A stretch of 64,000 nt of DNA. Source: an uncultured Bacteroidota bacterium (GTDB taxonomy: Bacteria > Bacteroidota > Bacteroidia > B-17B0 > Aurantibacillaceae). A program made the translations under genes and the position numbers. Shown in pieces: positions 13,642 through 28,038 of this stretch (positions are counted from its first letter, which is position 1; each line of letters starts with the position of its first letter). Location: positions 1,233 to 65,232 of the forward strand of contig CALMMX010000231.1 in NCBI GenBank assembly GCA_937868545.1. The letters run 5' to 3'. The notes beneath the pieces are model-generated. The model was not told where the DNA came from. It did no database searches and saw only the letters and a list, made by a program, of their open reading frames with translations.

Positions 13642-13821
13642 ATACATTTCCGTCTTTTGCTACAAAAATTCTCCCAATTTCAGGAGTTTTAAATCTTTTT
13701 ATACCTACTATTTACCGCTCATATAATTTGAGTTTTACAACTATTGCTTTTAACATTTTAATAGCATAGATTAGTAATTCATAAATTCGCTTTACTATAA
13801 AAGCAATTCTTAAAATAATTA

Positions 13822-15822
13822 ATGATGAAAAAAATACTTTACCTATTTATAATCTTAGTATCAATCAAAACAATTAATGCACAACATGCTTGCGCAGATC
13901 ATAAAGCAGCACATTTTAACAGAGCCTTAAATAAAAGAATGGCAATGCCAACTAGCTATACTCCTCCAGAAACTAAATATGACTTAAAATTTTACCATTT
14001 AAATTTAAATGTTGAAAGAAATACAGCATATATAAGTGGTAATGTTGTAAGTAAAGCAAAAGTTATGGTTGCTAGCCTTGATAGTTTCGCGTTTTTATTA
14101 CATCAAAACCATATCATTGATTCAGTATACGTAAATGGTGCTCGTCGCAATTTTGTTAGACAAGATAGTTTAGTAAAAGCAACTGCTGGCACTCCAATAC
14201 CATTAAACACAACATTTGATGCAATAGTATATTACAGAGGAACTTGCCCATCTGGTGGTGGTGCAGCAATTGGTGATGGATATAATGTAGGAACTTCTCC
14301 ATCATGGGGAAATCAAGCATCATGGAGCTTGAGCGAAAGTTTAGTTGCTTATCAATGGTTTCCTTGCAAACAAGATTTAACAGATAAAATAGATTCATCA
14401 TGGGTATTTGCTACAACTGATAGTGCAAACATGGTTGGATCTAATGGTTTATTAAAAAATATTGTGAGCTTAGGTACAAAAAAACGTTATGAATGGAAAT
14501 CTCGTTACCCAATTGATTACTATTTAATTTCAGTTTCAACTGCTAAATACAGGGCTTATAACTTATATGCTAAACCACAATATTTAGCTCCAGATTCAAT
14601 CTTCATTCAAAATTTTATTTATGATAATGCAATAGGAAACCCGAGTTGGAATACACAAAAAACGGCATTGAATAAAATAAAGCAAACTATTGAATTACAA
14701 TCAAAACTATTTGGAATGTACCCATTTTACAAAGAAAAATACGGGCATTGTATGGCACCTTTAGGTGGTGGAATGGAACATCAAACAATGACCACACTAG
14801 GATTTTTTGATTTTGAACTTGATGCACACGAATTAGGACATCAATGGTGGGGTGATAATGTAACTTGCAAAGCTTGGAAAGATATTTTTATAAATGAAGG
14901 TTGGGCAAGCTATTCCGAATATCTATGTCACCAATATCTACCTGCTATTTCTGGGACTTCTGCAGCATCTAAAATGACAAATGTTCATACTAATGTAATG
15001 TCGCAACCTGGCGGCAGTAGTTATTTTACCAATGCTGATACAGTTGATGCAAGCGTAATTTTTGATAGTAGATTAACTTACGACAAAGGAAGTGCTATAA
15101 TACACACTTTACGTTATACTATAAATAACGATTCAGTATTCTTCCCAGCTATACGTGGATTCCAAAATACTTATAAATTTAATGTAGCAAGTGTGATTGA
15201 TTTCAAAAATTACATGCAAACTTATACTGGCATTAACCTTACCCAATTCTTTAATCAATGGTATTATGGAGAAGGCTACCCTACTTTTAATGTAAAGTGG
15301 AACCAAGCTAGTGGTAATTTTATTTTAAAGTCTACTCAAACTCAATCTATGCCGAGTTCTGTGCCATTATTTATTACAGATGTAGATTACCGCATTTCAA
15401 GAACAGCTAAACCCGATACCGTTATAAGATTAAATCATGCCAATTTAATAGAAAATTACACTATCCCATTAACTGGAACTGTAACTTCTGTTTTTGTTGA
15501 TCCATCAAATTGGATTTTAAACAAAGTAATTGGGCCCGTGCAAGATCCAACTTTAGTATCTACAATTGGCATAGAAGAATTTGAACAAGCTACTTTCTTT
15601 ATTGGACCAAATCCAACTTCAGATGTATTAAATATTTATTTATATAATTCAGATAAAGCAGTAGTTGAAATTACTGATATCACTGGTAAATTGGTTGGTA
15701 TGCAAATGATTAAATCACAAGCTGAGTTTGATATTTCTAAATACAGCAATGGCATTTACAATGTTACAATTAAAAATACACATGGTGATATTTTAAAAAC
15801 TACTAAAATAGTTAAGAATTAA
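13822..15822 (+). CDS. M1 family metallopeptidase with type A T9SS C-terminal sorting domain
   Basis: GGMEH exopeptidase-like motif, HELGHQWWGD...NEGWASY zinc site, and a C-terminal ~80 aa GPNPTSDVLNIYL...GIYNVTIKN... Por-secretion tail. Confidence 0.85.
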   Translation: MMKKILYLFIILVSIKTINAQHACADHKAAHFNRALNKRMAMPTSYTPPETKYDLKFYHLNLNVERNTAYISGNVVSKAKVMVASLDSFAFLLHQNHIIDSVYVNGARRNFVRQDSLVKATAGTPIPLNTTFDAIVYYRGTCPSGGGAAIGDGYNVGTSPSWGNQASWSLSESLVAYQWFPCKQDLTDKIDSSWVFATTDSANMVGSNGLLKNIVSLGTKKRYEWKSRYPIDYYLISVSTAKYRAYNLYAKPQYLAPDSIFIQNFIYDNAIGNPSWNTQKTALNKIKQTIELQSKLFGMYPFYKEKYGHCMAPLGGGMEHQTMTTLGFFDFELDAHELGHQWWGDNVTCKAWKDIFINEGWASYSEYLCHQYLPAISGTSAASKMTNVHTNVMSQPGGSSYFTNADTVDASVIFDSRLTYDKGSAIIHTLRYTINNDSVFFPAIRGFQNTYKFNVASVIDFKNYMQTYTGINLTQFFNQWYYGEGYPTFNVKWNQASGNFILKSTQTQSMPSSVPLFITDVDYRISRTAKPDTVIRLNHANLIENYTIPLTGTVTSVFVDPSNWILNKVIGPVQDPTLVSTIGIEEFEQATFFIGPNPTSDVLNIYLYNSDKAVVEITDITGKLVGMQMIKSQAEFDISKYSNGIYNVTIKNTHGDILKTTKIVKN

Positions 15823-15870
15823 TTTTAGGTTTTTTCCATTATTAACTGCAAGTTAGTGTAAGTTATATTT

Positions 15871-15926
15871 GTCACTTTGAGTGATTTTGAGATGTATCAA
15901 TTGCTCTTGAAATCGCTCAAACTGAC
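15871..15926. other. long hairpin between convergent genes (possible bidirectional terminator or REP-like element)
   Basis: GTCACTTTGAGTGATTT (15871-15887) pairs with AAATCGCTCAAACTGAC (15910-15926): 17 bp with 2 non-Watson-Crick positions and a 22-nt loop. Confidence 0.5.
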
Positions 15927-15945
15927 ATTCAGATCTTTTTTTAAA

Positions 15946-17157
15946 TCAAAAGTCTTTCTTATTCAAATAATCTGAAACAAACTTGCCCATACTAAAACAA
16001 GATTGTAATAAATAACCACCTGTGGGGGCATCGTAATCAAGCATTTCGCCAATACAAAACGTATTTGGTATTTTCTTCAATTCAAAATGCTCTGTAAGTT
16101 CATTTAAATCAATTCCTCCAACAGTTGAAATAGACTCATCAATTGGGGCAAAATCAACAATTTCAATTGGGAATTTTTTTATGAGTTTTGATAATACGAA
16201 AACATCTTGATACTCGCTTTTACTTGTAACCGATTTTAATAAGACAATTTGTAGTTCTGTTAATTTTAAATTTTTTAATAAAAATTCCTTTATTGAAGAG
16301 TGCTTGTTTAATTCGAATTTCTGAACCAATTCATGGTAACTTATTTCCGGTTTAAAATCTATAAGAACAGTTGCCTTATTAGTTTCAATTAATTGCTTTC
16401 GAATAAATGGACTCAAAGGATAAATACCACTACCTTCTATACCAAAAGTTGTAAGCACAGCCTCCCCTTTAATTTTAGTATCTCCACAAGTAAACGCCGC
16501 ATTTTTAATTGGTTTACCTTCAATACTCTTAAGTATATTATCAGGCCAATTAATTTTATAAGCACAATTAGATGGATAAAACTCGTTTACTTTTATACTT
16601 TCATTCTCAAAAACTTCTTTCCAAGAGCCAGTACTACCCGTCTTTTTCCAACTTGCACCTCCCAATGCAAATACATAAAAATCCGCATCAACTTTTACAA
16701 CATTACCATCATTTAAAAATTGTGGATTTCCATTATTAAATCCCGAAAATTCAAAACCAGTTCTAATATCAATGTTATTTTTAACTATTTCCTTCATGAT
16801 AGTCTCAAACACATCAATGGGTTTAATTCCTTTAATAGGAAAAACACGTTTGCTTGTGCCAATAAACGTTGGTATTCCGATACCGTTTAGCCACTCAATA
16901 AAATCTATATTCGAAAAATTTAATAAAGCCTCTTTTAAAAAAGTATTAGGCGCGTAACGATTTATCAATAATTCCAATGATTCAGAATGTGTTAAATTAA
17001 ATCCACCATCACCTGCCACTAAAAATTTTCTAGCTAAAAATTTATTCTTTTCATAAATAGTTACAGAATATTTATTTGAATCTATATTGCAGGCAAACAT
17101 CAACGCAGCAGGGCCACCACCAATTATTGCAATAGATTTTTTCGGAATATTTTTCAT
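15946..17157 (-). CDS. NAD(P)/FAD-dependent oxidoreductase (HI0933/BaiN-like flavoprotein)
   Basis: IAIIGGGPAALM dinucleotide-binding motif directly after the internal Met (ATG 17155-17157). The track's upstream extension looks spurious. Confidence 0.8.
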   Translation of the reverse strand: MKNIPKKSIAIIGGGPAALMFACNIDSNKYSVTIYEKNKFLARKFLVAGDGGFNLTHSESLELLINRYAPNTFLKEALLNFSNIDFIEWLNGIGIPTFIGTSKRVFPIKGIKPIDVFETIMKEIVKNNIDIRTGFEFSGFNNGNPQFLNDGNVVKVDADFYVFALGGASWKKTGSTGSWKEVFENESIKVNEFYPSNCAYKINWPDNILKSIEGKPIKNAAFTCGDTKIKGEAVLTTFGIEGSGIYPLSPFIRKQLIETNKATVLIDFKPEISYHELVQKFELNKHSSIKEFLLKNLKLTELQIVLLKSVTSKSEYQDVFVLSKLIKKFPIEIVDFAPIDESISTVGGIDLNELTEHFELKKIPNTFCIGEMLDYDAPTGGYLLQSCFSMGKFVSDYLNKKDF

Positions 17158-17328
17158 ACTAACCTCGAGTACTAAATTAAGCATAGTTTTCATTACAACA
17201 TGATTATATGACAAAAACCAAATTTCAATAATCAATACATATTCATTATTAAAACGACTAGTTATAAAACTCAGAACTAAAAAAATGACTAAAATTTCAA
17301 TAATTTTCTAAAAAATTCACTTTTTTTC

Positions 17329-17359
17329 TTGCACCCCCCCTTTTTTTCACATACTTTTG
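17329..17359 (+). promoter_or_regulatory. candidate Bacteroidota sigma-A promoter for glnN (-33 TTG / -7 TAnnTTTG)
   Basis: TTG at 17329-17331, a 20-nt spacer, TACTTTTG at 17352-17359, about 50 nt upstream of the glnN ATG. Pattern match only. Confidence 0.35.
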
Positions 17360-17408
17360 GCAAAAAATTACATTATTTTACAAAACACCCCCTAAAAAAC
17401 ACAAATTT

Positions 17409-19598
17409 ATGAGCACAAGACGAGTTTTAGCCATGCAAGATGTTGTTAAAAGAACCCCAGTGGAGTTTAACAATAATAATAAGCAAGTTTCTCAATATTA
17501 TGGTTCAAATGTTTTTGGATTAGATGCGATGCGTGAATTCCTTTCGGAAGAAGCATTTAATAGCATTCAAAATTCAATGCACCAAGGAACAATTGTTGAA
17601 CGTAAAATGGCCGATCAAGTTGCAGCTTGCATGAAAGCTTGGGCTCAAAGTAAAGGTGTTACACATTTTACACACTGGTTTCAACCATTAAGTGGGGCAA
17701 CTGCCGAAAAACACGATGGTTTTTTTGAACCAATAGAAGGTGGAAGAGCCATTGAACGTTTTAGCGGAAATGCATTAGTACAACAAGAGCCAGATGCATC
17801 ATCTTTCCCAAATGGAGGTATACGTAATACTTTTGAAGCTCGTGGTTATACTGCTTGGGATCCAACATCACCAGCATTTATTTGGGGAGAAACATTGTGT
17901 ATTCCTACTATTTTCATTTCTTATACAGGCGAATCTTTAGATTTTAAAACACCATTATTAAAATCATTAGCTGCTGTAGATAAAGCAGCAACAGAAGTTT
18001 GTCAGTATTTTGATAAAAACGTTTCTAAAGTAATTGCAACTTTAGGTTGGGAACAAGAGTATTTCTTAGTCGATTCAGCTTTATATAATATTCGTTACGA
18101 TATTCAACAAACAGGTCGTACTTTATTTGGACATGCTTCAGCAAAAGGACAACAGCTTGAAGATCACTACTGGGGATCAATTCCAGAAAGAGTTTCGGCT
18201 TACATGCGCGATTTTGAATACGAAGCACATTTACTAGGAATTCCAGTTCGTACTCGTCATAATGAAGTTGCTCCAGCTCAATTTGAATGTGCACCAGTAT
18301 TTGAAGAAACGAACTTAGCTGTTGATCATAATTTATTGTTAATGGACGTAATGGAAAAAGTTGCAATACGTCATAACTTTAGAGTATTAATGCATGAAAA
18401 ACCTTATGCTGGAGTAAATGGAAGTGGTAAACATAACAATTGGAGTTTAGCTACTAACACAGGTAAAAATTTATTATCTCCTGGTAAAACTCCAAAAACA
18501 AATTTACAATTCTTAACTTTCTTTGTAAATACAGTTAAAGCAGTATACGAACACGCTGATTTATTAAGAGCTTCAATTGCTTCTGCTAATAACGATCATC
18601 GCTTAGGCGCTAATGAAGCTCCTCCTGCAATCATGTCGGTGTTTTTAGGTGAGCAATTATCAAAAGTTTTGGATGAGTTAGAAAAATCGGTGCATTCAGG
18701 AAAGATGAGTCCTGAAGAAAAAACTGCTCTTAAAATGAACATTGGTCGTATTCCAGATATTTTATTAGACAATACTGATAGAAACAGAACATCACCATTT
18801 GCCTTTACTGGAAATAAATTTGAATTTAGAGCGGTTGGTTCATCCGCAAATTGTGGTGGCCCAATGACAGTTTTAAATTCAATTGTAGCAGAACAATTAA
18901 TGACATTTAAAAAAGATGTTGATTCATTAATGGATAAAAAAGTAGAGAAAGATGAAGCAATTTTTCAAATACTAAAAAAATACATTATTGAAAGTAAAAA
19001 AATTCGTTTCGAAGGAAATGGATATGGCGATGCTTGGAAAGCAGAAGCTAAAAAACGTGGGTTAAACAATATACCAACAACACCAGGTGCTTTAGAAGCA
19101 ATGATTTCTAAAAAAACTTTGGGTATGTATGAATCGTTAGGTATTTTAAATCACCGCGAACAAGAAGCCCGCTACGAAATTGCTTTAGAAACTTACACTA
19201 AAAAAATTCAAATTGAAAGCCGTATTATTGCTGACATGGTAGATAATCAAATTATACCATCTGCACTAACATACCAAAAAACTTTAACTGATAATGTTGT
19301 AGGATTAAAAACAATATTAAGCGGTGCAGAATTTAAAAAAGCAAGCGATACACAAATTGCATTAATTAAAGAAATAAGTGAACGTGTAACAATTATAAAG
19401 AAAGCTGCAGATGATATGACTGAGGAAAGAAGAAAAGCTAATAACTTAGATACTGCGAAAAAACAAGCACATGCTTACTGTGAAAAAGTAAAACCATTTT
19501 TTGAAACCATTCGTTATAATGTAGATAAGCTTGAAAACATTGTAGACGATGCTACTTGGCCTTTACCAAAATACAGAGAAATGTTGTATTTAAGATAG
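17409..19598 (+). CDS. glnN: glutamine synthetase type III
   Basis: 729 aa; the length and motifs (NGSGKHNNWS, RLGANEAPPAIMSVFLG, RNRTSPFAFTGNKFEFRAVGSS) are characteristic of GSIII. Confidence 0.92.
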   Translation: MSTRRVLAMQDVVKRTPVEFNNNNKQVSQYYGSNVFGLDAMREFLSEEAFNSIQNSMHQGTIVERKMADQVAACMKAWAQSKGVTHFTHWFQPLSGATAEKHDGFFEPIEGGRAIERFSGNALVQQEPDASSFPNGGIRNTFEARGYTAWDPTSPAFIWGETLCIPTIFISYTGESLDFKTPLLKSLAAVDKAATEVCQYFDKNVSKVIATLGWEQEYFLVDSALYNIRYDIQQTGRTLFGHASAKGQQLEDHYWGSIPERVSAYMRDFEYEAHLLGIPVRTRHNEVAPAQFECAPVFEETNLAVDHNLLLMDVMEKVAIRHNFRVLMHEKPYAGVNGSGKHNNWSLATNTGKNLLSPGKTPKTNLQFLTFFVNTVKAVYEHADLLRASIASANNDHRLGANEAPPAIMSVFLGEQLSKVLDELEKSVHSGKMSPEEKTALKMNIGRIPDILLDNTDRNRTSPFAFTGNKFEFRAVGSSANCGGPMTVLNSIVAEQLMTFKKDVDSLMDKKVEKDEAIFQILKKYIIESKKIRFEGNGYGDAWKAEAKKRGLNNIPTTPGALEAMISKKTLGMYESLGILNHREQEARYEIALETYTKKIQIESRIIADMVDNQIIPSALTYQKTLTDNVVGLKTILSGAEFKKASDTQIALIKEISERVTIIKKAADDMTEERRKANNLDTAKKQAHAYCEKVKPFFETIRYNVDKLENIVDDATWPLPKYREMLYLR
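19407..19598 (+). repeat. copy A of the 192-nt glnN 3'-end repeat
   Basis: Hand alignment to 26350-26541 shows 4 differences, all silent. Confidence 0.9.
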
Positions 19599-19625
19599 TA
19601 AAAATCAAACAATAAATAAAAAAAT

Positions 19626-19665
19626 AAAAAAACCATGGTAAAATTACACCATGGTTTTTTGTTTT
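19626..19665. terminator. bidirectional Rho-independent terminator (glnN / convergent lipoprotein gene)
   Basis: AACCATGGT (19631-19639) pairs with ACCATGGTT (19648-19656), flanked by an A-run upstream and a T-run downstream. Confidence 0.75.
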
Positions 19666-19673
19666 AAATATTA

Positions 19674-20648
19674 TTAATGTGTTAAATTGCCAGTTAACGC
19701 TAATGTTGAGCTACCAGCTCCGATAACTTTATTTAAACTTACATTATTTACAGTAACAGATACATCATTAGCATTAGTAATAACAGTAGCTTTATCTCCT
19801 CCCATTGAATTGTATACTTCTGAAGTAGCAGTATTTGCATATTCAATATAAATTTTACCATTACCTAAAGCGCTTTTACTTGAAACAACATCATAAGTGC
19901 CAGTAGGTGGGTAAGAAGTGCTAAACCAATATTTTAATCCAAATAGTGGTGCTGATGTACTTGATCCTTCGAATTTAAAACTTCCAGTAGGATCTAAAGA
20001 TACAACTAGTTGAGTAGGATTAAACGTTGTAGAACCAAGTATAAATTGGTTTGCCGTAACTCCAACAGGTGTTGTATAACTTGCATTAGCTGATGGAATA
20101 ACAGGAATTGTGCTTACTAATTTACTTGATAAACTCATACTATTTAAGCCAACATTAGTGCTCTCGATAGTAAATACACCTCCTGAATTTGTAATTGTTG
20201 CCATACCGCCAGTTGTAACATAATTATAAATAAAATAAGGTGCTGTAGAAAAGCTCTTTGCAATACCAACATTAACAACACTTGGAGCGTAAGAAGCACT
20301 TGAAGACACAATGCTATATGAACCAGAGGCCATTAAATACGTTGGAAAAGAATATGATAGTATAATTGTTGTATCACCCGAAATTGCTTTTGCAGCTAAT
20401 ACACAAGTGCCATTTGCACTTTTTTCCCAATATGGATTATTAGCAACACTAGTTGCAGTATATACAGTTCCGTTTGCACTCCATTGGTTAGCCGTTAAAG
20501 TAGAAGTTCCTCCAGAACCCCCACCTGTTGTACCTCCCGTTGTTGTTACAGGCGTATCTGGTGGTGTATCTTCTTTCTTTTTACAAGAAAAAATTACACC
20601 TGTTACTAATAAGACAATTGCTGACGTTTTGATGAGTTGCTTTTTCAT
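19674..20648 (-). CDS. lipoprotein of unknown function, two tandem homologous domains
   Basis: Lipobox (..VIFSCKK) and a T/G-rich linker. The two halves share LTANQW..G[ST]Y.[IV]VSS-type patterns. Confidence 0.55.
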   Translation of the reverse strand: MKKQLIKTSAIVLLVTGVIFSCKKKEDTPPDTPVTTTGGTTGGGSGGTSTLTANQWSANGTVYTATSVANNPYWEKSANGTCVLAAKAISGDTTIILSYSFPTYLMASGSYSIVSSSASYAPSVVNVGIAKSFSTAPYFIYNYVTTGGMATITNSGGVFTIESTNVGLNSMSLSSKLVSTIPVIPSANASYTTPVGVTANQFILGSTTFNPTQLVVSLDPTGSFKFEGSSTSAPLFGLKYWFSTSYPPTGTYDVVSSKSALGNGKIYIEYANTATSEVYNSMGGDKATVITNANDVSVTVNNVSLNKVIGAGSSTLALTGNLTH

Positions 20649-20683
20649 AATTTATAGTTTTTAATAGTTTGTATAGTGTTTTT

Positions 20684-22429
20684 TTACTCTTTAATAAATT
20701 TCACAGCCTTTGTATTACCTATTTGTAAAAAATAAATGCCACTATTTAAGTTTTGAATATTTAATGTTGAGTTTATAGTTGTAGCTATTTCAGTTAAAAC
20801 TACTTTGCCTAAAACATTAGTAATTAAAATAGTTTCTGGGCTATTTATATTATTTAATTCAATATTTAAAATAGAGTTTGTTGGGTTTGGATAAATAGAA
20901 AGATTATTTGTTGTTAAAATTTCATTTAAACCAATACTCATTGCACCACCAAGTTTTATGGCATAGCTGCTATTTGGGGCACTATAAGAGGTAACTGTAA
21001 ATTGTGTTGTTGGTCCTGGATCTAAATCAAATACAACGCCAAAGCTATTAGCATATTCTCCACAAAAATAAGGCGTATTTTTTGTGTCAACATTTACTGC
21101 ATTAACGTTATTAATTCCACCGCCGCCTATTCTTCTTGCATCAATGTAATTACCATTTCCATCTAACTTAGTTATAAAAACCTCAAGCCCACTTCCATAA
21201 GGGTTTACTAAATTATTTGTAGCAGTTGGTGATGCATTAAAATCTACTGTGCCTTGAAAAACTCCTGTAGCATAAATATTTCCTTGGTTGTCTAAATCAA
21301 TCGCTGATCCGTTATCTTGATAAAGATCTCCAAACTGTTTTACCCAGTTTAAAGTGCCAGTATTATTCAATTTATAAATACAAATATCTTCTGAAGTCCC
21401 TGTACCAAAACTTTGAAGAGTAAATGTATTTACAGGATCGGGGTCAAAATCCATTACTCCTCTAAATGTAGAATTAACAAACACATTTCCAGTAGCGTCT
21501 ACTACTGCTTTACCTGGGGTGCCACTAGCTGTACTACCAGTAAAAGATTTTGCCCATACAAAATTACCATTAGCATCTAATTTAGAAACAAAAGGATACT
21601 CGTTACCTATTAAAGTAAATTGAGTAGTAGCATCAGGATCAAAATCAATAATATCATAAAATTGACCAAACGTGTATATATTATTAGAAGCATCTAAAGA
21701 TAAACTGAATATCTGGCTTTTATCATTACTAGAAAATGTAGTAGTGCCAACAAAACCTTTCGCCCAAATAAAATCACCGTTAGCATCAAGTTTTTGAACA
21801 TACGCATTACTAGGGCCAACAGGTTGTATAGTATAAGTAGCGCCACTAGGGTCAAAATCTGCAACAGAATTAAAAACACCAGCCAAATAAATATTACCTG
21901 TAGGGTCTGTAGCTAAGTCTACTGTCCAATCTAATAAACCAGAAGTTACATTGTTTTTTGCCCAAATAAAATCACCAGCTCCATTAAGTTTCATTACAAA
22001 ACCATCAGTATTGCTTGCGGCCAAGGTATATGTTGATGTTGGATTTGGATCAAAATCAACCATACTTTTAAAATTACCTCCTACAATAATATTTCCTGTT
22101 GCATCAACTACTACTGTATTTGCATTATCCCAATCAAAAGAACCAACTTGCTTTGCCCATAAAAAATTACCCATGCTGTTTAATTTTAAAATAAAAGCGT
22201 TTGTAATGTAAGATGTATTAGTTCTTAAATAAAATGTATCAGCTGGCAAATTACTGGGATTAAAATCTACCGTTCCTGCAAAATCTCCAACAATGTAAAC
22301 ATTGCCTAAAGAATCAGTTGTAATATCTTTATTTATTGCAGAGCTTGTTTTAGCCCAACTAAAATTTGGTATTTGAGCGTAGGTATTTAAAATAAATAAG
22401 CTTGACAATAGTTTGTAGAATGTTTTCAT
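20684..22429 (-). CDS. SBBP beta-propeller-repeat protein with type A T9SS sorting domain
   Basis: About 10 repeats of the type D..GN[IV]Y..G.F.G..DFDP....., and a C-terminal IYPNPTNSILNIEL...GIYFLQI... tail. Confidence 0.8.
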   Translation of the reverse strand: MKTFYKLLSSLFILNTYAQIPNFSWAKTSSAINKDITTDSLGNVYIVGDFAGTVDFNPSNLPADTFYLRTNTSYITNAFILKLNSMGNFLWAKQVGSFDWDNANTVVVDATGNIIVGGNFKSMVDFDPNPTSTYTLAASNTDGFVMKLNGAGDFIWAKNNVTSGLLDWTVDLATDPTGNIYLAGVFNSVADFDPSGATYTIQPVGPSNAYVQKLDANGDFIWAKGFVGTTTFSSNDKSQIFSLSLDASNNIYTFGQFYDIIDFDPDATTQFTLIGNEYPFVSKLDANGNFVWAKSFTGSTASGTPGKAVVDATGNVFVNSTFRGVMDFDPDPVNTFTLQSFGTGTSEDICIYKLNNTGTLNWVKQFGDLYQDNGSAIDLDNQGNIYATGVFQGTVDFNASPTATNNLVNPYGSGLEVFITKLDGNGNYIDARRIGGGGINNVNAVNVDTKNTPYFCGEYANSFGVVFDLDPGPTTQFTVTSYSAPNSSYAIKLGGAMSIGLNEILTTNNLSIYPNPTNSILNIELNNINSPETILITNVLGKVVLTEIATTINSTLNIQNLNSGIYFLQIGNTKAVKFIKE

Positions 22430-22513
22430 TATCTTTGTTTTATTTTGAATGATTTTTTTATTTTTTGAAGCTACTAAGTATTTTAATCAGTTTATATAGG
22501 GAGAAAACCTTAT

Positions 22514-23446
22514 TTAATTACTTACAACTTTATCTAGTAAATTTATTTTCACACCAATGCCAGCAAAAGCAGTTAAGCCATCTGCTCCAGGATATTTTCC
22601 AAATTCTGCATTAAAATGTAAACCTATGTTTTGCATCTTACCAAAATATAATCCTGCTTCAAATGTAAATCGAGCACCTATTGGAAGGCTTCTACCATTT
22701 ACTTTATCAATTTCAGATGTAGCTCCACCTACAGTTTTTTGTTTTTTATTTATAGAAAGTGTTGAACTGCCAAATAATGCATCAGCCCCAACCGACATAT
22801 ACTGATTTTTTCTTCCTTTTGCTGACATGCCAGTTCCATGATTTGAATTGGTGTGGTTTTTTGAACTATAAATATATATTCCGCCATACGCACCTAATGT
22901 AGAATACTTAAACACATATCCACCTCCACTAAAATTTCCGACATTATTAAATATGCTATCTGTGTATGTAATGCCATAAGCCGTTGTTTTTACACTCGTA
23001 TTGCCATATCCCATATCGGATAAATCACTTGAGTTAACAGTGCTAAATCCTTTTCTAAAAAAGCCTCCACGTAAGCCTTTTAACTTATGAATATTTATAT
23101 CTGTAATTAAAACTTGATAGGTATTTCCACCAGTAAGTTTATCGAACACCTTACCTTTTTTGCTAACAATTTTATTTTGAAAAGCAAACATAACACCAAG
23201 GTCTGTTTTGTTACAAATTTTAGAAATGCCTAAAGATGTTTGAGCAATTAATCTTTTTTGTATAACAAAATTTCCATCGGCAGCTAATACAAAATAGGGC
23301 ACTTCACCACTAAAGACACCAAATTCTAATTTTGGCGCAATTGATAAACGTTTTTGATAAAGGTCTAAATCAAATTGATTAGCTTTCTCTTGAGCCGAAA
23401 AGGCTGTTGTAATAATTAAAGCGGCAATTGTAATCATTTTTTTCAT
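22514..23446 (-). CDS. putative outer-membrane beta-barrel protein
   Basis: Signal peptide, alternating Gly/aromatic-rich strands, C-terminal ...FAGIGVKINLL. No family recognised. Confidence 0.45.
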   Translation of the reverse strand: MKKMITIAALIITTAFSAQEKANQFDLDLYQKRLSIAPKLEFGVFSGEVPYFVLAADGNFVIQKRLIAQTSLGISKICNKTDLGVMFAFQNKIVSKKGKVFDKLTGGNTYQVLITDINIHKLKGLRGGFFRKGFSTVNSSDLSDMGYGNTSVKTTAYGITYTDSIFNNVGNFSGGGYVFKYSTLGAYGGIYIYSSKNHTNSNHGTGMSAKGRKNQYMSVGADALFGSSTLSINKKQKTVGGATSEIDKVNGRSLPIGARFTFEAGLYFGKMQNIGLHFNAEFGKYPGADGLTAFAGIGVKINLLDKVVSN

Positions 23447-23504
23447 AGTACAAATTTTATACTACAAAAATAGTTTGCCATTACTAATTAGTTATGAGGA
23501 GTAA

Positions 23505-23534
23505 ACACCAAAATAATAGGGAGTATTCCCTATT
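23505..23534 (-). terminator. hairpin terminator downstream of the response-regulator gene
   Basis: AATAGGGA (23515-23522) pairs with TCCCTATT (23527-23534), 4-nt loop, T-rich tract follows on the minus strand. Confidence 0.5.
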
Positions 23535-23542
23535 TTACAATA

Positions 23543-24196
23543 TTAAACAGAAATTAAACCTGTTTTAATAGCATATTTCACTAAACCAACTGAGCTTCTG
23601 CAATCGCACTTTGCTAAAATATTTTGTCTATGATTACCTACTGTTTTTATGCTAATAAATAATTTCTCAGCTATTTGTTCACTGCTTAACTCCTTAGCAA
23701 TTAGCGTCAAAATTTCTTTTTCTCTTTCTGATAATTGAGCTATGTTTTGTGTAGCTTTTTTTTCGGAATTAAAATGCGAATAAATAATTGGTATAATTTC
23801 TTCAGAATAATAAGTTCCATCATTACTAATTTTAAATATAGCTTCAAGTAATTTATCCTTACCTCCATTTTTAAGCATATAGCCATCTGCTTCAGCTAAA
23901 ATAGATTCTTTAATAATTTCTTTGCTACTATACATGCTTAAAACTAATACTTTAATATGTGAGTAAGAAGCTTTAACCAAGCGGCAAAGCTCTATACCAG
24001 ATACTGTTGGCATATTAATATCTGTAATTAAAAAATTAATTCCGCTACTGTTTTTTTCTAAATAATTTAAAACATCAGTAGTGTTATTACAAGTATGCGC
24101 CACGTTTATATTCTTTTCGCTACTAAGCATAAATTGTAATCCATCTATCACAATTTGATGGTCGTCGGCTATTATTAAATTTATATTTTGGTTCAT
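23543..24196 (-). CDS. NarL/FixJ-type response regulator (REC + LuxR HTH)
   Basis: IADDH..., phospho-acceptor context LITDINMP, C-terminal LSEREKEILTLIAKELSSEQIAEKLFISIKTVGNHRQNI. Confidence 0.9.
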   Translation of the reverse strand: MNQNINLIIADDHQIVIDGLQFMLSSEKNINVAHTCNNTTDVLNYLEKNSSGINFLITDINMPTVSGIELCRLVKASYSHIKVLVLSMYSSKEIIKESILAEADGYMLKNGGKDKLLEAIFKISNDGTYYSEEIIPIIYSHFNSEKKATQNIAQLSEREKEILTLIAKELSSEQIAEKLFISIKTVGNHRQNILAKCDCRSSVGLVKYAIKTGLISV

Positions 24197-26073
24197 ATAT
24201 TAATATTTAAAACAATGTTAGTTCCTTTGCTATTGCTATTTACATCTAAATTAGCGTTTATGATTTTAGCTCTAGTAATTATATTACTCCAACCAATACC
24301 ACTTGAAGTATATATTTTTTGGGTATCAAAACCAACGCCATCATCTGCAATATTTATTCTTAAATTATTACCTGTTACAACAAAACTTACCAAAATTTGC
24401 TTGGCATTCGCATGTTTTATCATGTTGTTAAAAACCTCTTGCACTATGCGGTAAATGGATAGCTCAATGTTTGTAGCAAATTTTAAAGGCTGTGTTTCTT
24501 CGTAATTAAATACACATTGAATTGTTCCTACTTCGTTTATTTTTGAGCATAAATCTTTCACAGCGGGCACTAAACCCAGGTTTATAATTTCGGGCATTAG
24601 GTTATGTGATATGCCACGGACTTCGCTAATTGTACTATCTAATAAATCTATTTGTTTCTTATTCTCTATTTCATTAACTGATGCGTACATTTTTAGTACA
24701 GTTAATTTTTGTCCAATACCATCGTGTAACTCACGAGCAATTCGCATTCTCTCAGTTTGCTCACTTTGTATAATTTTTAAGGAAGCTTCGTTTTCTTGTT
24801 CAATGAGTTGTTTGTTTTTTTTGTTTTTAAAACGGGAAAATAGCAAGTAGGAAATAATACCAATTAAAAAAGCTATCAATGAAATAAAAATTATAAGATT
24901 ACTTCGTTGCTTTAATTTTTCATTTTGCAACAGTATTGTTTTTTCTTTGTTATTTGTATCAAATTTTATTTCTAACTCATTTATTTTATTCTTTGAATCT
25001 ACATTCAATAATGAATCGTTAAGTGTATTTTTTAACAATAAAAAATCATATGCTGTCTTATAGTCATTTATTTGTTTACTTACAATTATACCCGCATCAT
25101 AAAATAAATTTAAATCTTCAATATCATCATATTTTTTAGCATAAAAAAAAGAGGAATCTAAAAAAAGTTTAGCTTCATCATATCTATTTAAGAAAGCATC
25201 GGCTTTTGCTAAACTAGTATATGATAACGCATACCCATCTAAATTACGCCTCCCCTTTTCTATTAGCAGAGCTCTCATGGCATTCTTGTACATCAACTCA
25301 TATTCACCTTTTACTTCATATATTAAAGCAGAGTTATTTAAAACTACAGGTAATTCTATTGAATCCTTTCTGGTTTCTGAAATTAATAATGACTTTTGGG
25401 AATTTACAAAAGAACTATCTAAAAAACTCTGTTTTTTATCACGATTCTCAATGCGTTTGGCTAATGCAAGAAAGGACATGCTTTTTAAGTCCAAAATAGC
25501 TGCAACCCGATTCTCAAATTTATTTTTATTTGCTAAAATCAGGGCTTGATTTAAATTTTTAATTGCTTCTTCTTCATTATTATTTAAAGAATTTAACTTT
25601 GACAGCTTTTCATAACCATAAACTTCCATGACTACAATATTATTTTTCTTTACATAATCAATATATTCAAGCATTATTTTAGTCCCTTCTTTATAATTAT
25701 GCAAAGCGACATAATTTGAGGCTATTCCCAATAAACACGCACCCTTTATTTTATGATAACTAGTTCTAGATAATATTTCCTTTGCTTTAAAGTTATAATA
25801 ATTAGAACTGTCGTAATTACCATTAGAATAATGAAACATACCCATTGAAAGATTTAATCTCCCTAATCCATAAGTACTATTTATTTTCTTAGCATCAACA
25901 ATTGCTTTAGTTATTAATGACCGAAACAAAATCTCGTCTCGTGAGTTTGCATCACATTTATTTATTAACTTCATTAAATTCAAAGAATCAGATTCTTTAT
26001 TTTCAGATTGTGATAACAAACCTGAAGAAGCAACCATTAAAAAGATAAATAGAATATTAAGTTTAATTTTCAT
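24193..26073 (-). CDS. TPR-containing sensor histidine kinase (HisKA_3/HATPase)
   Basis: Signal peptide, TPR-like repeats, one TM (LIIFISLIAFLIGIISYLLF), H-box RIARELHDGIGQ, and an N/G-box region. 4-nt overlap with the regulator gene. Confidence 0.85.
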   Translation of the reverse strand: MKIKLNILFIFLMVASSGLLSQSENKESDSLNLMKLINKCDANSRDEILFRSLITKAIVDAKKINSTYGLGRLNLSMGMFHYSNGNYDSSNYYNFKAKEILSRTSYHKIKGACLLGIASNYVALHNYKEGTKIMLEYIDYVKKNNIVVMEVYGYEKLSKLNSLNNNEEEAIKNLNQALILANKNKFENRVAAILDLKSMSFLALAKRIENRDKKQSFLDSSFVNSQKSLLISETRKDSIELPVVLNNSALIYEVKGEYELMYKNAMRALLIEKGRRNLDGYALSYTSLAKADAFLNRYDEAKLFLDSSFFYAKKYDDIEDLNLFYDAGIIVSKQINDYKTAYDFLLLKNTLNDSLLNVDSKNKINELEIKFDTNNKEKTILLQNEKLKQRSNLIIFISLIAFLIGIISYLLFSRFKNKKNKQLIEQENEASLKIIQSEQTERMRIARELHDGIGQKLTVLKMYASVNEIENKKQIDLLDSTISEVRGISHNLMPEIINLGLVPAVKDLCSKINEVGTIQCVFNYEETQPLKFATNIELSIYRIVQEVFNNMIKHANAKQILVSFVVTGNNLRINIADDGVGFDTQKIYTSSGIGWSNIITRAKIINANLDVNSNSKGTNIVLNINI

Positions 26074-26229
26074 TAGAGTTAATTGTTTTATTGAAGAATT
26101 AATTATTGAAGTAAATTTAATGTTTTAATTTTATTACATATAGTCATTTCTCCCCATATAAAATTATATTTCAAAATTTTCAACTTTAAATATTGAAAAA
26201 CTTTCGTTTATAAAAATCTAATCCCTTAA

Positions 26230-26541
26230 CATTTAAATTATGATACGTTTAATTAATGGCAATTAAAAAAGACAATCGCTTTAATAAATTAAAAAGCAGA
26301 AATAAATGAAGCTATTTTTTAAACACTAAAAAAATCCAGATTGAAAACCGCAGATGATATGACTGAGGAAAGAAGAAAAGCTAATAACTTAGACACTGCG
26401 AAAAAACAAGCACATGCTTACTGTGAAAAAGTAAAACCATTTTTTGAAACCATTCGTTATAATGTAGATAAGCTTGAAAACATTGTAGACGATGCTACTT
26501 GGCCTTTACCAAAATACAGAGAAATGTTATACTTAAGATAA
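26230..26541 (+). pseudogene. multiply deleted remnant of a glnN 3' region (5' boundary approximate)
   Basis: 26230-26322 aligns loosely (about 70-80 %, with indels) to glnN ~18868-18977. 26323-26350 aligns to glnN 19196-19223 (about 25/28). 26350-26541 matches glnN 19407-19598 (188/192). The track ORF 26341-26541 encodes the identical last 63 aa of GlnN. Confidence 0.8.
26350..26541 (+). repeat. copy B of the 192-nt glnN 3'-end repeat
   Basis: Differences from copy A are GAT>GAC, TTG>TTA, TAT>TAC and TAG>TAA. Confidence 0.9.
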
Positions 26542-26563
26542 TAACATACATAATTAAAATTTA

Positions 26564-26602
26564 AAAGCGGTTATCCTAAACAGGTAACCGCTTTCTTTTT
26601 TT
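26564..26602 (+). terminator. Rho-independent terminator following the glnN remnant
   Basis: AAAGCGGTTA (26564-26573) pairs with TAACCGCTTT (26585-26594) and is followed by CTTTTTTT. Its sequence is unrelated to the glnN terminator at 19626-19665. Confidence 0.75.
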
Positions 26603-26659
26603 CAATTCCCTAAAAAAATAAATAATTGATTTACTGTAAGTTATATTATTTTCAAAAAC

Positions 26660-26685
26660 AAACTTTCATTTTTTATTGAAAGTTT
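26660..26685. promoter_or_regulatory. palindromic operator candidate upstream of the GbsR-like regulator gene
   Basis: AAACTTTCA-N8-TGAAAGTTT, 38 nt upstream of the ATG at 26723. Same half-sites and spacing as 27243-27266. Confidence 0.55.
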
Positions 26686-26722
26686 AAGAATAAGTATTAC
26701 ATTTGTATAGAAATTAGAAATA

Positions 26723-27229
26723 ATGGAATTTACTGAAGGAAAACAAAAATTTATACAAACTTGGGGAACACTAGGTAGTAGTTGGGGAATTAGCAGAACG
26801 ATGGCTCAAGTTCATGCATTATTATTAATTAGTCCAGATGCTTTAACTACAGAAGAAGTGATGGAGGATTTAAAAATATCTCGCGGAAATGCCAACATGA
26901 ATTTAAGAGACTTAATGGATTGGGGTTTGATTAGTAAAGAACTAGTAGCAGGAGAACGTAAAGAATATTTTGTTGCCGAAAAGGATATTTGGAAAGTAGC
27001 AAAACAAATTATTAAAGAACGCAGAAAAAGGGAAATTGAGCCAGTACTAAGCATTTTAGAAGATTTAAAACAAGTAAAGGGAAACAAAACCGACAAATAC
27101 CATTCTGAGTTTATAAAAACTGTAGCTAATATTGAAGCTGTAGTGGAGAAAACTGATTTCGCATTAGACAAAGCTGTTAAATTAGATGAAAATGCATTTG
27201 TAGGAATGTTATTCAAACTATTTAAATAA
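26723..27229 (+). CDS. GbsR/MarR-like winged-helix transcriptional regulator
   Basis: The N-terminal W..LG..WGISRTMAQVHALLLIS...LTTEEVMEDLKISRGNANMNLRDLMDWGLI pattern is typical of the COG1510/GbsR-like family. Confidence 0.75.
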   Translation: MEFTEGKQKFIQTWGTLGSSWGISRTMAQVHALLLISPDALTTEEVMEDLKISRGNANMNLRDLMDWGLISKELVAGERKEYFVAEKDIWKVAKQIIKERRKREIEPVLSILEDLKQVKGNKTDKYHSEFIKTVANIEAVVEKTDFALDKAVKLDENAFVGMLFKLFK

Positions 27230-27242
27230 TTTTTTTTAATCT

Positions 27243-27266
27243 AAACTTTCAATTCTTACTGAAAGT
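27243..27266. promoter_or_regulatory. second copy of the palindromic operator candidate
   Basis: AAACTTTCA-N8-TGAAAGT, 22 nt upstream of the ATG at 27288. Confidence 0.55.
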
Positions 27267-27287
27267 ACAAAAAAATAAAATAAGAAA

Positions 27288-27662
27288 ATGGAAACAACAG
27301 TAACAAAAAAGCAATTAAAAAACTATTTACTTATAGCAATTATAAGCGGATTAGTAGGTGTTTTCGCATTTATACTATTAGGGTATTTCGAGTTTTTTGT
27401 GGGTAGTATACAATTAATTTTTGCACTTATAAAAACCATTTATCAATTTATACGAGATAAATCAATATCCGGAAATATGAAATTGTATTGGAAAATAGTA
27501 TTCTTCTATTTTCTTACTATGGGCGTACTAAGTTTAATTATTAGCAATTTTATAACTAACTCAAATCACACTCATTTCTTTTGGAGTTTTTACATAAGCA
27601 CAGCGTGGGGCATCGCAATCTATCACTTTAGGCATATCATGTTTCCTAAACAAAACAAATAA
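27288..27662 (+). CDS. small integral membrane protein (about 4 TM)
   Basis: 124 aa, hydrophobic spans, directly downstream of the regulator and operator. Confidence 0.5.
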   Translation: METTVTKKQLKNYLLIAIISGLVGVFAFILLGYFEFFVGSIQLIFALIKTIYQFIRDKSISGNMKLYWKIVFFYFLTMGVLSLIISNFITNSNHTHFFWSFYISTAWGIAIYHFRHIMFPKQNK

Positions 27663-27669
27663 AACTACT

Positions 27670-28038
27670 ATGTTACTTATAATTTCATATGTGCTTTACC
27701 TAATAATAACAGCAGTAATTACTTTTTATGTTGGCTGGTTATGTTACAAAAATGGTATTCATTATATACAGGCCGAGCTAAAAGATGAGGTGCTAGCCAA
27801 TGCTGTAAACCGTTTTTTGCTCATAGGCTATTACCTAACAAACTTAGGTTATGCAGCAATAATGATTTATAATTGGGACCAAGTCAATAATATGGCAGAT
27901 GTTATTAATGCACTATCTAAACGTATTTCATTTATAGTGCTTTCAATGGGAGGTATGCATTATTTAAATATTACACTAATCTACCTCCTTCGTCAAAACA
28001 ATAAAACATCAATAAATAAAAATAATACAAACAATTAA
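27670..28038 (+). CDS. small integral membrane protein, paralog of the next gene
   Basis: 122 aa; shares ...Y[VL]...L[CF]KNG....., N[RK][FL][LF].IG[YF]YL.N.G[YF]A..[IM]..... with 28051-28488. Confidence 0.5.
   Translation: MLLIISYVLYLIITAVITFYVGWLCYKNGIHYIQAELKDEVLANAVNRFLLIGYYLTNLGYAAIMIYNWDQVNNMADVINALSKRISFIVLSMGGMHYLNITLIYLLRQNNKTSINKNNTNN

Follow-up and report, generated by a model that had tools for sequence, protein, structure and literature searches.

A 6.7-kb cargo island at the 3′ end of the glutamine synthetase gene glnN in an uncultured Bacteroidota bacterium, probably inserted by homologous recombination with duplication of the gene end

In a stretch of 64,000 nucleotides (nt) of DNA from an uncultured Bacteroidota bacterium (assembly GCA_937868545.1, contig CALMMX010000231.1; hereafter the window), the glutamine synthetase gene glnN is followed by a 6.7-kilobase (kb) block of minus-strand genes and then by a second, nearly identical copy of its own 3′ tail. 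Our comparison with contigs of the same species revealed that the block is a strain-variable insertion confined to a tight clade, and that every deeper lineage has the empty site. We consider it likely that this island was inserted at the 3′ end of glnN by homologous recombination, of the Campbell type or through the flanks, and that the target end was duplicated in the process. The evidence consists of the direct repeat, the empty site, the sharing of alleles between the two tails and working glnN genes, the invariance of the island among its carriers, the graded identity of an old glnN fossil at its right end, and the lack of an integrase. All of the sequence data are short-read metagenome assemblies, in which the interior of the repeat cannot be phased.

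Direct base comparison of the 192-nt stretches 19407–19598 and 26350–26541 revealed exactly four differing positions, all of them silent, and the two encoded peptides are identical. A first-pass annotation of this DNA had claimed as much from an alignment made by hand, and a computed alignment of the same 192 nt uncovered no non-silent difference. A BLASTN self-comparison of the window extended the repeat and fixed its boundaries at 19400–19601 and 26343–26544 (202 nt, six mismatches, E = 6e-95), while a repeat search of the window reported the glnN-tail repeat as 224 nt at 93% identity. The repeat is direct, and the target glnN is still full length. The window itself is probably a contig of a metagenome-assembled genome. 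None of the four differences is more than 51 nt away from an edge of the repeat, and the identical interior of 134 nt is longer than common de Bruijn k-mer sizes. Because interior differences could have been collapsed during metagenome assembly, the number of four should be read as a lower bound.

The metagenome contigs of the same species were retrieved by exact-protein look-up. Seven of them carry the block (L081, L083, L091, L093, L094, L095 and L104), and in five others glnN runs directly into the terminator at 26564–26602 and then into the MarR-like gene. These empty-site contigs, whose identity to the window is ~99% (L082), 98% (L086), 96% (L088) or 93% (L087 and L089), come from four different sources, and they are not chimeras of a carrier strain, because lineage-specific single-nucleotide polymorphisms (SNPs) flank the junction on both sides. 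The whole carrier structure is spanned in L083 and L104, and L091 is also among the independent assemblies spanning it. The insertion junctions fall at 19601/19602 and 26342/26343, and the empty site in the close relatives is precise. Because the empty-site contigs lack the block, the block is an insertion, the downstream tail together with the terminator at 26564–26602 is the native 3′ end of glnN, and the last 13 nt of the working gene came with the island, as did the terminator at 19627–19660. In each of the five empty-site strains, the former terminator comes after the intact glnN; the latter, which scores as terminator-like on both strands, is absent from all five. The two hairpins (19627–19660 and 26564–26594) are unrelated to each other, as the first-pass annotation had observed; its assignment of the downstream terminator to the copy itself did not hold, since the empty-site strains identify this terminator as the ancestral one of glnN.

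Among the carriers, the island differs by only 0–4 SNPs per 6.7 kb. The left flank, at 12–17.7 kb, differs by about 1%, and it does so in mosaic blocks. Over 13697–19601, the SNPs among three strains form strain-private blocks at 13.9–15.0, 15.2–16.7 and 16.8–17.7 kb, and none lies in glnN between 17742 and 19522. This block-wise distribution resembles the pattern of a highly recombining population, in which the glnN segment would have been shared recently. On the larger scale, the GTDB species representatives, comprising 80 other Bacteroidota glnN loci, displayed neither a second glnN tail nor synteny with the window; the closest GlnN shares 93% protein identity, and these genomes were too distant to serve for dating the event.

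The strain comparison also provides insights into the origin of the four silent differences. Each of the four variant states is found in the working glnN of empty-site strains as well (Table 1). The remnant tail has no private substitution at all: it equals the working allele of L082 except for the C at 26394, which is itself a common working allele. Written across the four sites, the two tails of the window are T...GTG and C...ACA, and two other combinations are seen, T...ACA in L082 and C...GTG in L093 and L088. The window tails therefore look like reciprocal recombinants of T...ACA and C...GTG, with a crossover inside the 134-nt identical stretch. The four differences are thus probably ordinary synonymous polymorphisms of working glnN alleles, re-sorted by that crossover; they would be silent because they arose in working genes, where selection acted on the working alleles and not on the remnant. 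The probability of four silent differences out of four under neutral decay is 0.001–0.013, so the first-pass annotation was justified in calling this result unlikely for a decaying pseudogene. One of its two explanations, that the tails diverged inside functional alleles and that one arrived together with the block by recombination or horizontal transfer, is supported by the empty-site strains, in whose working glnN all four variants segregate.

Table 1. Features of the glnN locus and of the inserted island (window coordinates)
Feature	Position	Strand	Remarks
glnN, type III glutamine synthetase, 729 amino acids (aa), intact	17409–19598	+	Pfam GSIII_N, Gln-synt_C, Gln-synt_C-ter
Repeat copy A	19400–19601	+	3′ tail of the working glnN; last 13 nt (TTG TAT ... 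TAG) island-linked in every block-carrying contig
Difference 1	19451		T/C, GAT/GAC, silent; T in L082, L087, L089; C in L086, L088 and the working copy of carrier L093
Difference 2	19586		G/A, TTG/TTA, silent; G in L088; A in L082, L086, L087, L089
Difference 3	19589		T/C, TAT/TAC, silent; T in L086, L088; C in L082, L087, L089
Difference 4	19598		G/A, TAG/TAA, silent (stop codon); TAG in L086, L088; TAA in L082, L087, L089
Inserted 6.7-kb island, five minus-strand genes	19602–26342	-	Pfam; strain comparison
Island-borne bidirectional terminator	19627–19660	both	Now ends glnN and the convergent 324-aa gene
Unknown protein, 324 aa	19674–20648	-	Pfam
581-aa protein with SBBP repeats and a type IX secretion system (T9SS) sorting domain	20684–22429	-	Pfam
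Unknown protein, 310 aa	22514–23446	-	Pfam
LuxR-type response regulator	23543–24196	-	Pfam
TPR/HisKA_3 histidine kinase	24193–26073	-	Pfam
Old glnN fossil at the right end of the island	26251–26342	+	Corresponds to glnN nt 1487–1573 and ~1800–1814, joined at ACTAAAAAAAT
Repeat copy B	26343–26544	+	Displaced native glnN tail; holds the open reading frame 26359–26541 (60 aa) or 26341–26541 (66 aa)
Native glnN terminator	26564–26602	+	Hairpin 26564–26594 and T-run (terminator scan)
MarR/TrmB-like regulator gene	26723–27229	+	Ancestral downstream neighbour of glnN; own TAnnTTTG motif at 26698–26705

To the left of the displaced tail, the island ends in a much more eroded piece of glnN. The segment 26251–26346 aligns with glnN at 18895–18993 (76.8% identity, two gaps, E = 5e-14), and 26323–26350 matches glnN at 19195–19222 in 25 of 28 positions. 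Composition does not account for the longer of these alignments, whose local score is 81, compared with 24 ± 3 (maximum 38) in 300 shuffles. Both deletion joints lie on microhomology, ACTAAAAAAAT at the first and GAAAGCYG at the second; the 5′ piece contains in-frame stop codons and indels, and the frame breaks at the second joint. The description in the first-pass annotation, a decayed and twice-deleted glnN with a broken frame and joints on microhomology, stands in substance, although its coordinates were slightly shifted and the second joint is longer than the AGCYG it reported.

From left to right, the identity to glnN climbs monotonically through 73, 77, 85, 89 and 98%. The fossil is 22% diverged (78% identical) from every lineage of the species, whereas the strains differ from each other by 7.5–11.6% at fourfold-degenerate sites. 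At sites where the window lineage has another state, the fossil retains those of L087 and L001. The signs of a neutral remnant (stop codons, indels and the 22% divergence) are present in 26251–26342 but not in the tail at 26343–26544, which is 98% identical; the difference in divergence between fossil and tail is highly significant (Fisher P = 1e-8). A distant donor of the fossil was considered and rejected, the fossil being closest to this species complex among nine glnN orthologues. Judged by its divergence, the fossil is an old relic, much older than the tail, that travels with the island, while the tail is either a recently displaced working sequence or one that is continually refreshed. 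The fresh tail and the stepwise loss of identity towards the left could be explained because exchange with working alleles would be anchored on the right by the genuine flank and would reach only leftwards, ending at variable points within the remnant.

Single-crossover integration of a circle bearing the 3′ fragment of a gene yields the intact gene, the insert, a promoterless 3′ fragment and the native terminator, in this order. The layout of the glnN locus is what would be expected from either of two routes, which fit equally well. In the first, a circular form of the island bearing a glnN 3′ fragment would have recombined with the chromosomal tail through a single (Campbell-type) crossover. 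In the second, a carrier strain would have passed the island on by way of two crossovers, one within glnN and one within the tail or the downstream flank. On either route, the reading frame within the tail would be a by-product. Campbell-type integration as practised in the laboratory, for example insertion-duplication with suicide plasmids, produces the same layout, with direct repeats, reciprocal alleles and possible pop-out; the present case differs in that it is a natural 6.7-kb chromosomal islet, without a replicon or a selectable marker, and in that part of the homologous fragment is an eroded fossil. Here, too, the 202-nt repeats would permit pop-out. L082 may be a strain that never received the island or a revertant, both being compatible with its T...ACA tail. 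What we infer is by which route the recombination took place, in which direction the event ran (gain, or pop-out in L082) and how the tail is refreshed.

A tentative alternative to recent insertion is that the duplication is ancient in this lineage and that the 200-nt tail has been kept identical by ongoing gene conversion within the genome, the shorter 5′ pieces, severed by the deletions, having fallen below the exchange length and decayed. It overlaps with our preferred reading and differs from it only in the timing of the event and in the source copy. The fossil, far more diverged than the tail, is consistent with such a process, and the working copy of L093 has the C of the remnant at 19451. 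Moreover, positions 19523 and 26466 carry the same base within each assembly, A/A in the window and T/T in L083 and L104; across 15 kb, L083 departs from the window at these two positions alone. Their co-variation has two possible sources, conversion of one copy by the other or the collapse of a de Bruijn bubble. No copy-specific base lies within 55 nt of the co-varying site, and bubble popping in a collapsed repeat gives the same pattern; the one-sided contigs (L081 and L093 versus L091) would also fit a T in glnN and an A in the remnant throughout. In addition, the near-zero diversity of the island among its carriers favours a recent common origin.

Concerted evolution between a gene and a silent truncated copy is exemplified by pilE/pilS in Neisseria and by the duplicated tuf genes. 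The glnN locus resembles these systems in having a near-identical copy, here partial and promoterless, a few kb from the expressed gene, with possible co-variation of sites. However, the copy encodes an identical peptide and so cannot be a store of variation, and conversion is a possibility only.

Several points weigh against the insertion by homologous recombination that we favour. Neither a donor nor a circular form has been seen, and the change between L082 and the carriers may have run in either direction, as L082 could be a pop-out via the repeats. Position 19451 need not mark the crossover; its two states could stem from a later mutation or from the import of an allele. Furthermore, if the island has long been resident, its pristine tail requires continuing gene conversion, for which the matching bases at 19523 and 26466 are no more than a hint, and one that assembly collapse could mimic. 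A more speculative extension of the homologous-recombination reading, which we regard as conceivable though rather doubtful, is that the island cycles between strains without an integrase, by RecA-dependent Campbell recombination, with its portable glnN tail as the attachment site; the graded fossil would then be a record of earlier cycles.

The direct repeats, the intact target and the cargo genes also match elements that integrate at the 3′ end of their target gene and reconstitute it. The island could accordingly be read as a decayed integrative element similar to the cis-mobilizable elements (CIMEs), in which the 200-nt repeats would be the attL and attR sites of a tyrosine-recombinase element targeting the glnN 3′ end and mobilisable in trans. 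CIMEs of 1.2–13 kb that lack recombination genes have been reported from the 3′ ends of rpmG, rpsI, fda and rplL (PMC7563491). A short contig of another, related species (~82% nucleotide identity), L103, has a glnN tail in a foreign context. This tail, 310 nt long (positions 600–909), shares 99% identity with the end of the full glnN of that species in L102 (1064–1374). In L103, 8 nt separate the beginning of the tail from the start codon of a minus-strand Proton_antipo_M-like gene; the similarity between the two contigs ends immediately past the stop codon, and their terminators differ. L103 may represent a second, independent island at a glnN tail, or it may be a chimeric 1-kb contig.

We nevertheless consider a site-specific element improbable. 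No integrase is found in the island or within ~10 kb of flank, and Phage_integrase is not among the top 25 families matched by at least two of 106 reading frames within 4.5 kb downstream of glnN at 70 Bacteroidota loci. The repeat is much longer than the usual identity segments of att sites, and the graded fossil points to homology-driven exchange. The likeness to the streptococcal CIMEs is one of architecture: strain-variable cargo at the 3′ end of a housekeeping gene that remains intact, flanking direct repeats originating from that gene end, and no recombination or transfer genes. The differences are that the repeats here are ~200 nt of full gene sequence instead of a short core, that the host belongs to the Bacteroidota and not to Streptococcus, that no integrase-bearing partner element is known at the glnN site, and that the evidence favours homologous over site-specific recombination.

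Given that all sources are short-read metagenome assemblies, the repeat or its junctions might be an assembly artefact. L084, L085 and L090, from three samples, all begin exactly at window position 26474, inside the repeat. The shared start indicates repeat-induced assembly breaks, and suggests that island carriers are present in those samples. An artefact is nonetheless extremely improbable for the structure as a whole, as the full arrangement is present in the window, L083 and L104, which derive from different samples, each junction recurs in further contigs (L081, L091, L093 and L094), and copy-specific bases mark both edges of the repeat.

The first-pass annotation had offered a second explanation for the silent-only differences: the 60–66 codon open reading frame (ORF) in the displaced tail would be maintained, for example as a free-standing GlnN C-terminal peptide. 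Such a peptide would modulate the type III glutamine synthetase (GSIII), as a functional analogue of the cyanobacterial inactivating factors IF7 and IF17. The ORF is intact, has an ATG start, is followed by a strong terminator and is called as a gene in several assemblies, and the four silent differences are, as described above, unlikely under neutral decay. However, each of the four variants also exists in working alleles, and the tail has none of its own. Had the tail evolved independently for as long as the fossil, ~8 synonymous differences would be expected, and three are observed (P = 0.05). The terminator is simply the native one of glnN, the ORF is confined to one nearly clonal haplotype, and a second tail is absent from the 80 other Bacteroidota loci mentioned above.

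The 90% protein cluster of the ORF leads to the same view: apart from one short ambiguous contig, its other short members are contig ends, scaffold gaps or apparent frameshifts. Specifically, L100 and L105 are contig-edge calls, L102 is interrupted by a scaffold gap, and both L101 and L106 resemble a frameshifted glnN (the latter judged from its gene table only), which leaves L103 as the only ambiguous member. With respect to expression, the Bacteroidota-type –7 promoter motif TAnnTTTG is missing from the plus strand of 26074–26359, while glnN (at 17352) and the MarR-like gene are each preceded by one; a sigma-70 promoter scan gave sites no more numerous than in shuffled sequence and so does not bear on the question. 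Taken together, the absence of private substitutions, of the tail in the other loci and of the motif, along with the artefacts in the cluster, leaves the idea of a maintained micro-protein without support, and we regard it as very improbable.

The same low probability applies to the more specific scenario in which the ORF at 26359–26541 would be expressed from the AT-rich region shared with the divergent kinase gene, giving a free GSIII C-terminal peptide that disturbs GSIII assembly or activity. If this were true, the island would bring a glutamine synthetase modulator together with a two-component system. IF7 and IF17 inactivate the cyanobacterial glutamine synthetase; they target the type I enzyme and are not known to be fragments of it. 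The likeness is limited to the idea of a small protein acting on glutamine synthetase, since the ORF described here has no independent conservation, no promoter motif and no spread beyond one haplotype.

The island itself contains cargo genes only, without recombination or transfer genes by Pfam: none of its five genes matched an integrase or recombinase, and the gene tables of ~10 kb of flank list none. Its guanine-plus-cytosine content (0.27–0.35) overlaps with that of the flanks (0.26–0.38). Three of the five island proteins are alone in their own 90% clusters among 15 billion proteins, and the clusters of the other two have three and five members. The homologue search with the histidine kinase yielded nothing between 100% and 53% identity, the next relative being at most 53% identical, and a scan of JGI metagenomes with the same protein gave only one relative, at 37%. 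Two relatives of the kinase, at 42–44%, are encoded in similar cassettes without glnN, so that no donor emerged.

Such kinase–regulator–T9SS cassettes are present in other Bacteroidota, largely collinear with the island (the gene order is slightly different in L099) and away from glnN. The distant cassettes in L097 (10001–21060) and L099 (6223–13914) comprise a TPR histidine kinase, a LuxR regulator, small unknown proteins and T9SS-sorted proteins; they reach 63–70% nucleotide identity in places and adjoin HipA-type toxin genes. The combination of a two-component system with T9SS cargo appears to be conserved, and because the homologous cassettes lie elsewhere and not beside glnN, we take the block to be a movable module. 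Within the 581-aa T9SS-sorted gene, the region 21236–22307 contains internal repeats of ~200 nt, in two families of four copies each (60–73% identical), which correspond to the SBBP β-propeller blades of the protein.

The glnN product matches PDB entry 3o6x from end to end (E = 8e-294). No tRNA gene, and hence no tRNA target, was found in the window, and an Rfam search of 17000–28000 gave no credible match. Just downstream of the MarR-like gene, a gene for a 124-aa membrane protein (27288–27662) is absent from the empty-site contigs L086 and L088 (window 27283–27650), making it a second presence/absence difference adjoining the island site. Its product showed no significant similarity to three neighbouring proteins of 122, 145 and 168 aa. 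In the 93% lineage, the JGI contig L087 (1–420) joins an inverted fragment of an HI0933-like gene (window 17361–16954) to glnN at ~18681, so that only the C-terminal 297 aa of GlnN are left, and L089, from another study, starts at 18684. The junction in L087 is either a real truncation or inversion of glnN, or a repeat-induced misjoin.

To conclude, the glnN locus described here is a typical case of target-end duplication next to a small cargo island, and one that population data document unusually well. It provides a clean population-level example of an integrase-less cargo islet that sits at the 3′ end of a housekeeping gene and probably moves through it by homologous recombination; the empty site, the two parental alleles, their reciprocal recombinant tails and the graded fossil are all part of it. 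Annotators should count the 60-aa ORF called by several pipelines as a fragment of glnN. More generally, our findings carry a warning: an intact gene fragment with silent differences only, lying beside an island, can mimic a selected micro-protein when it is merely a recently displaced or recombinationally refreshed gene end.

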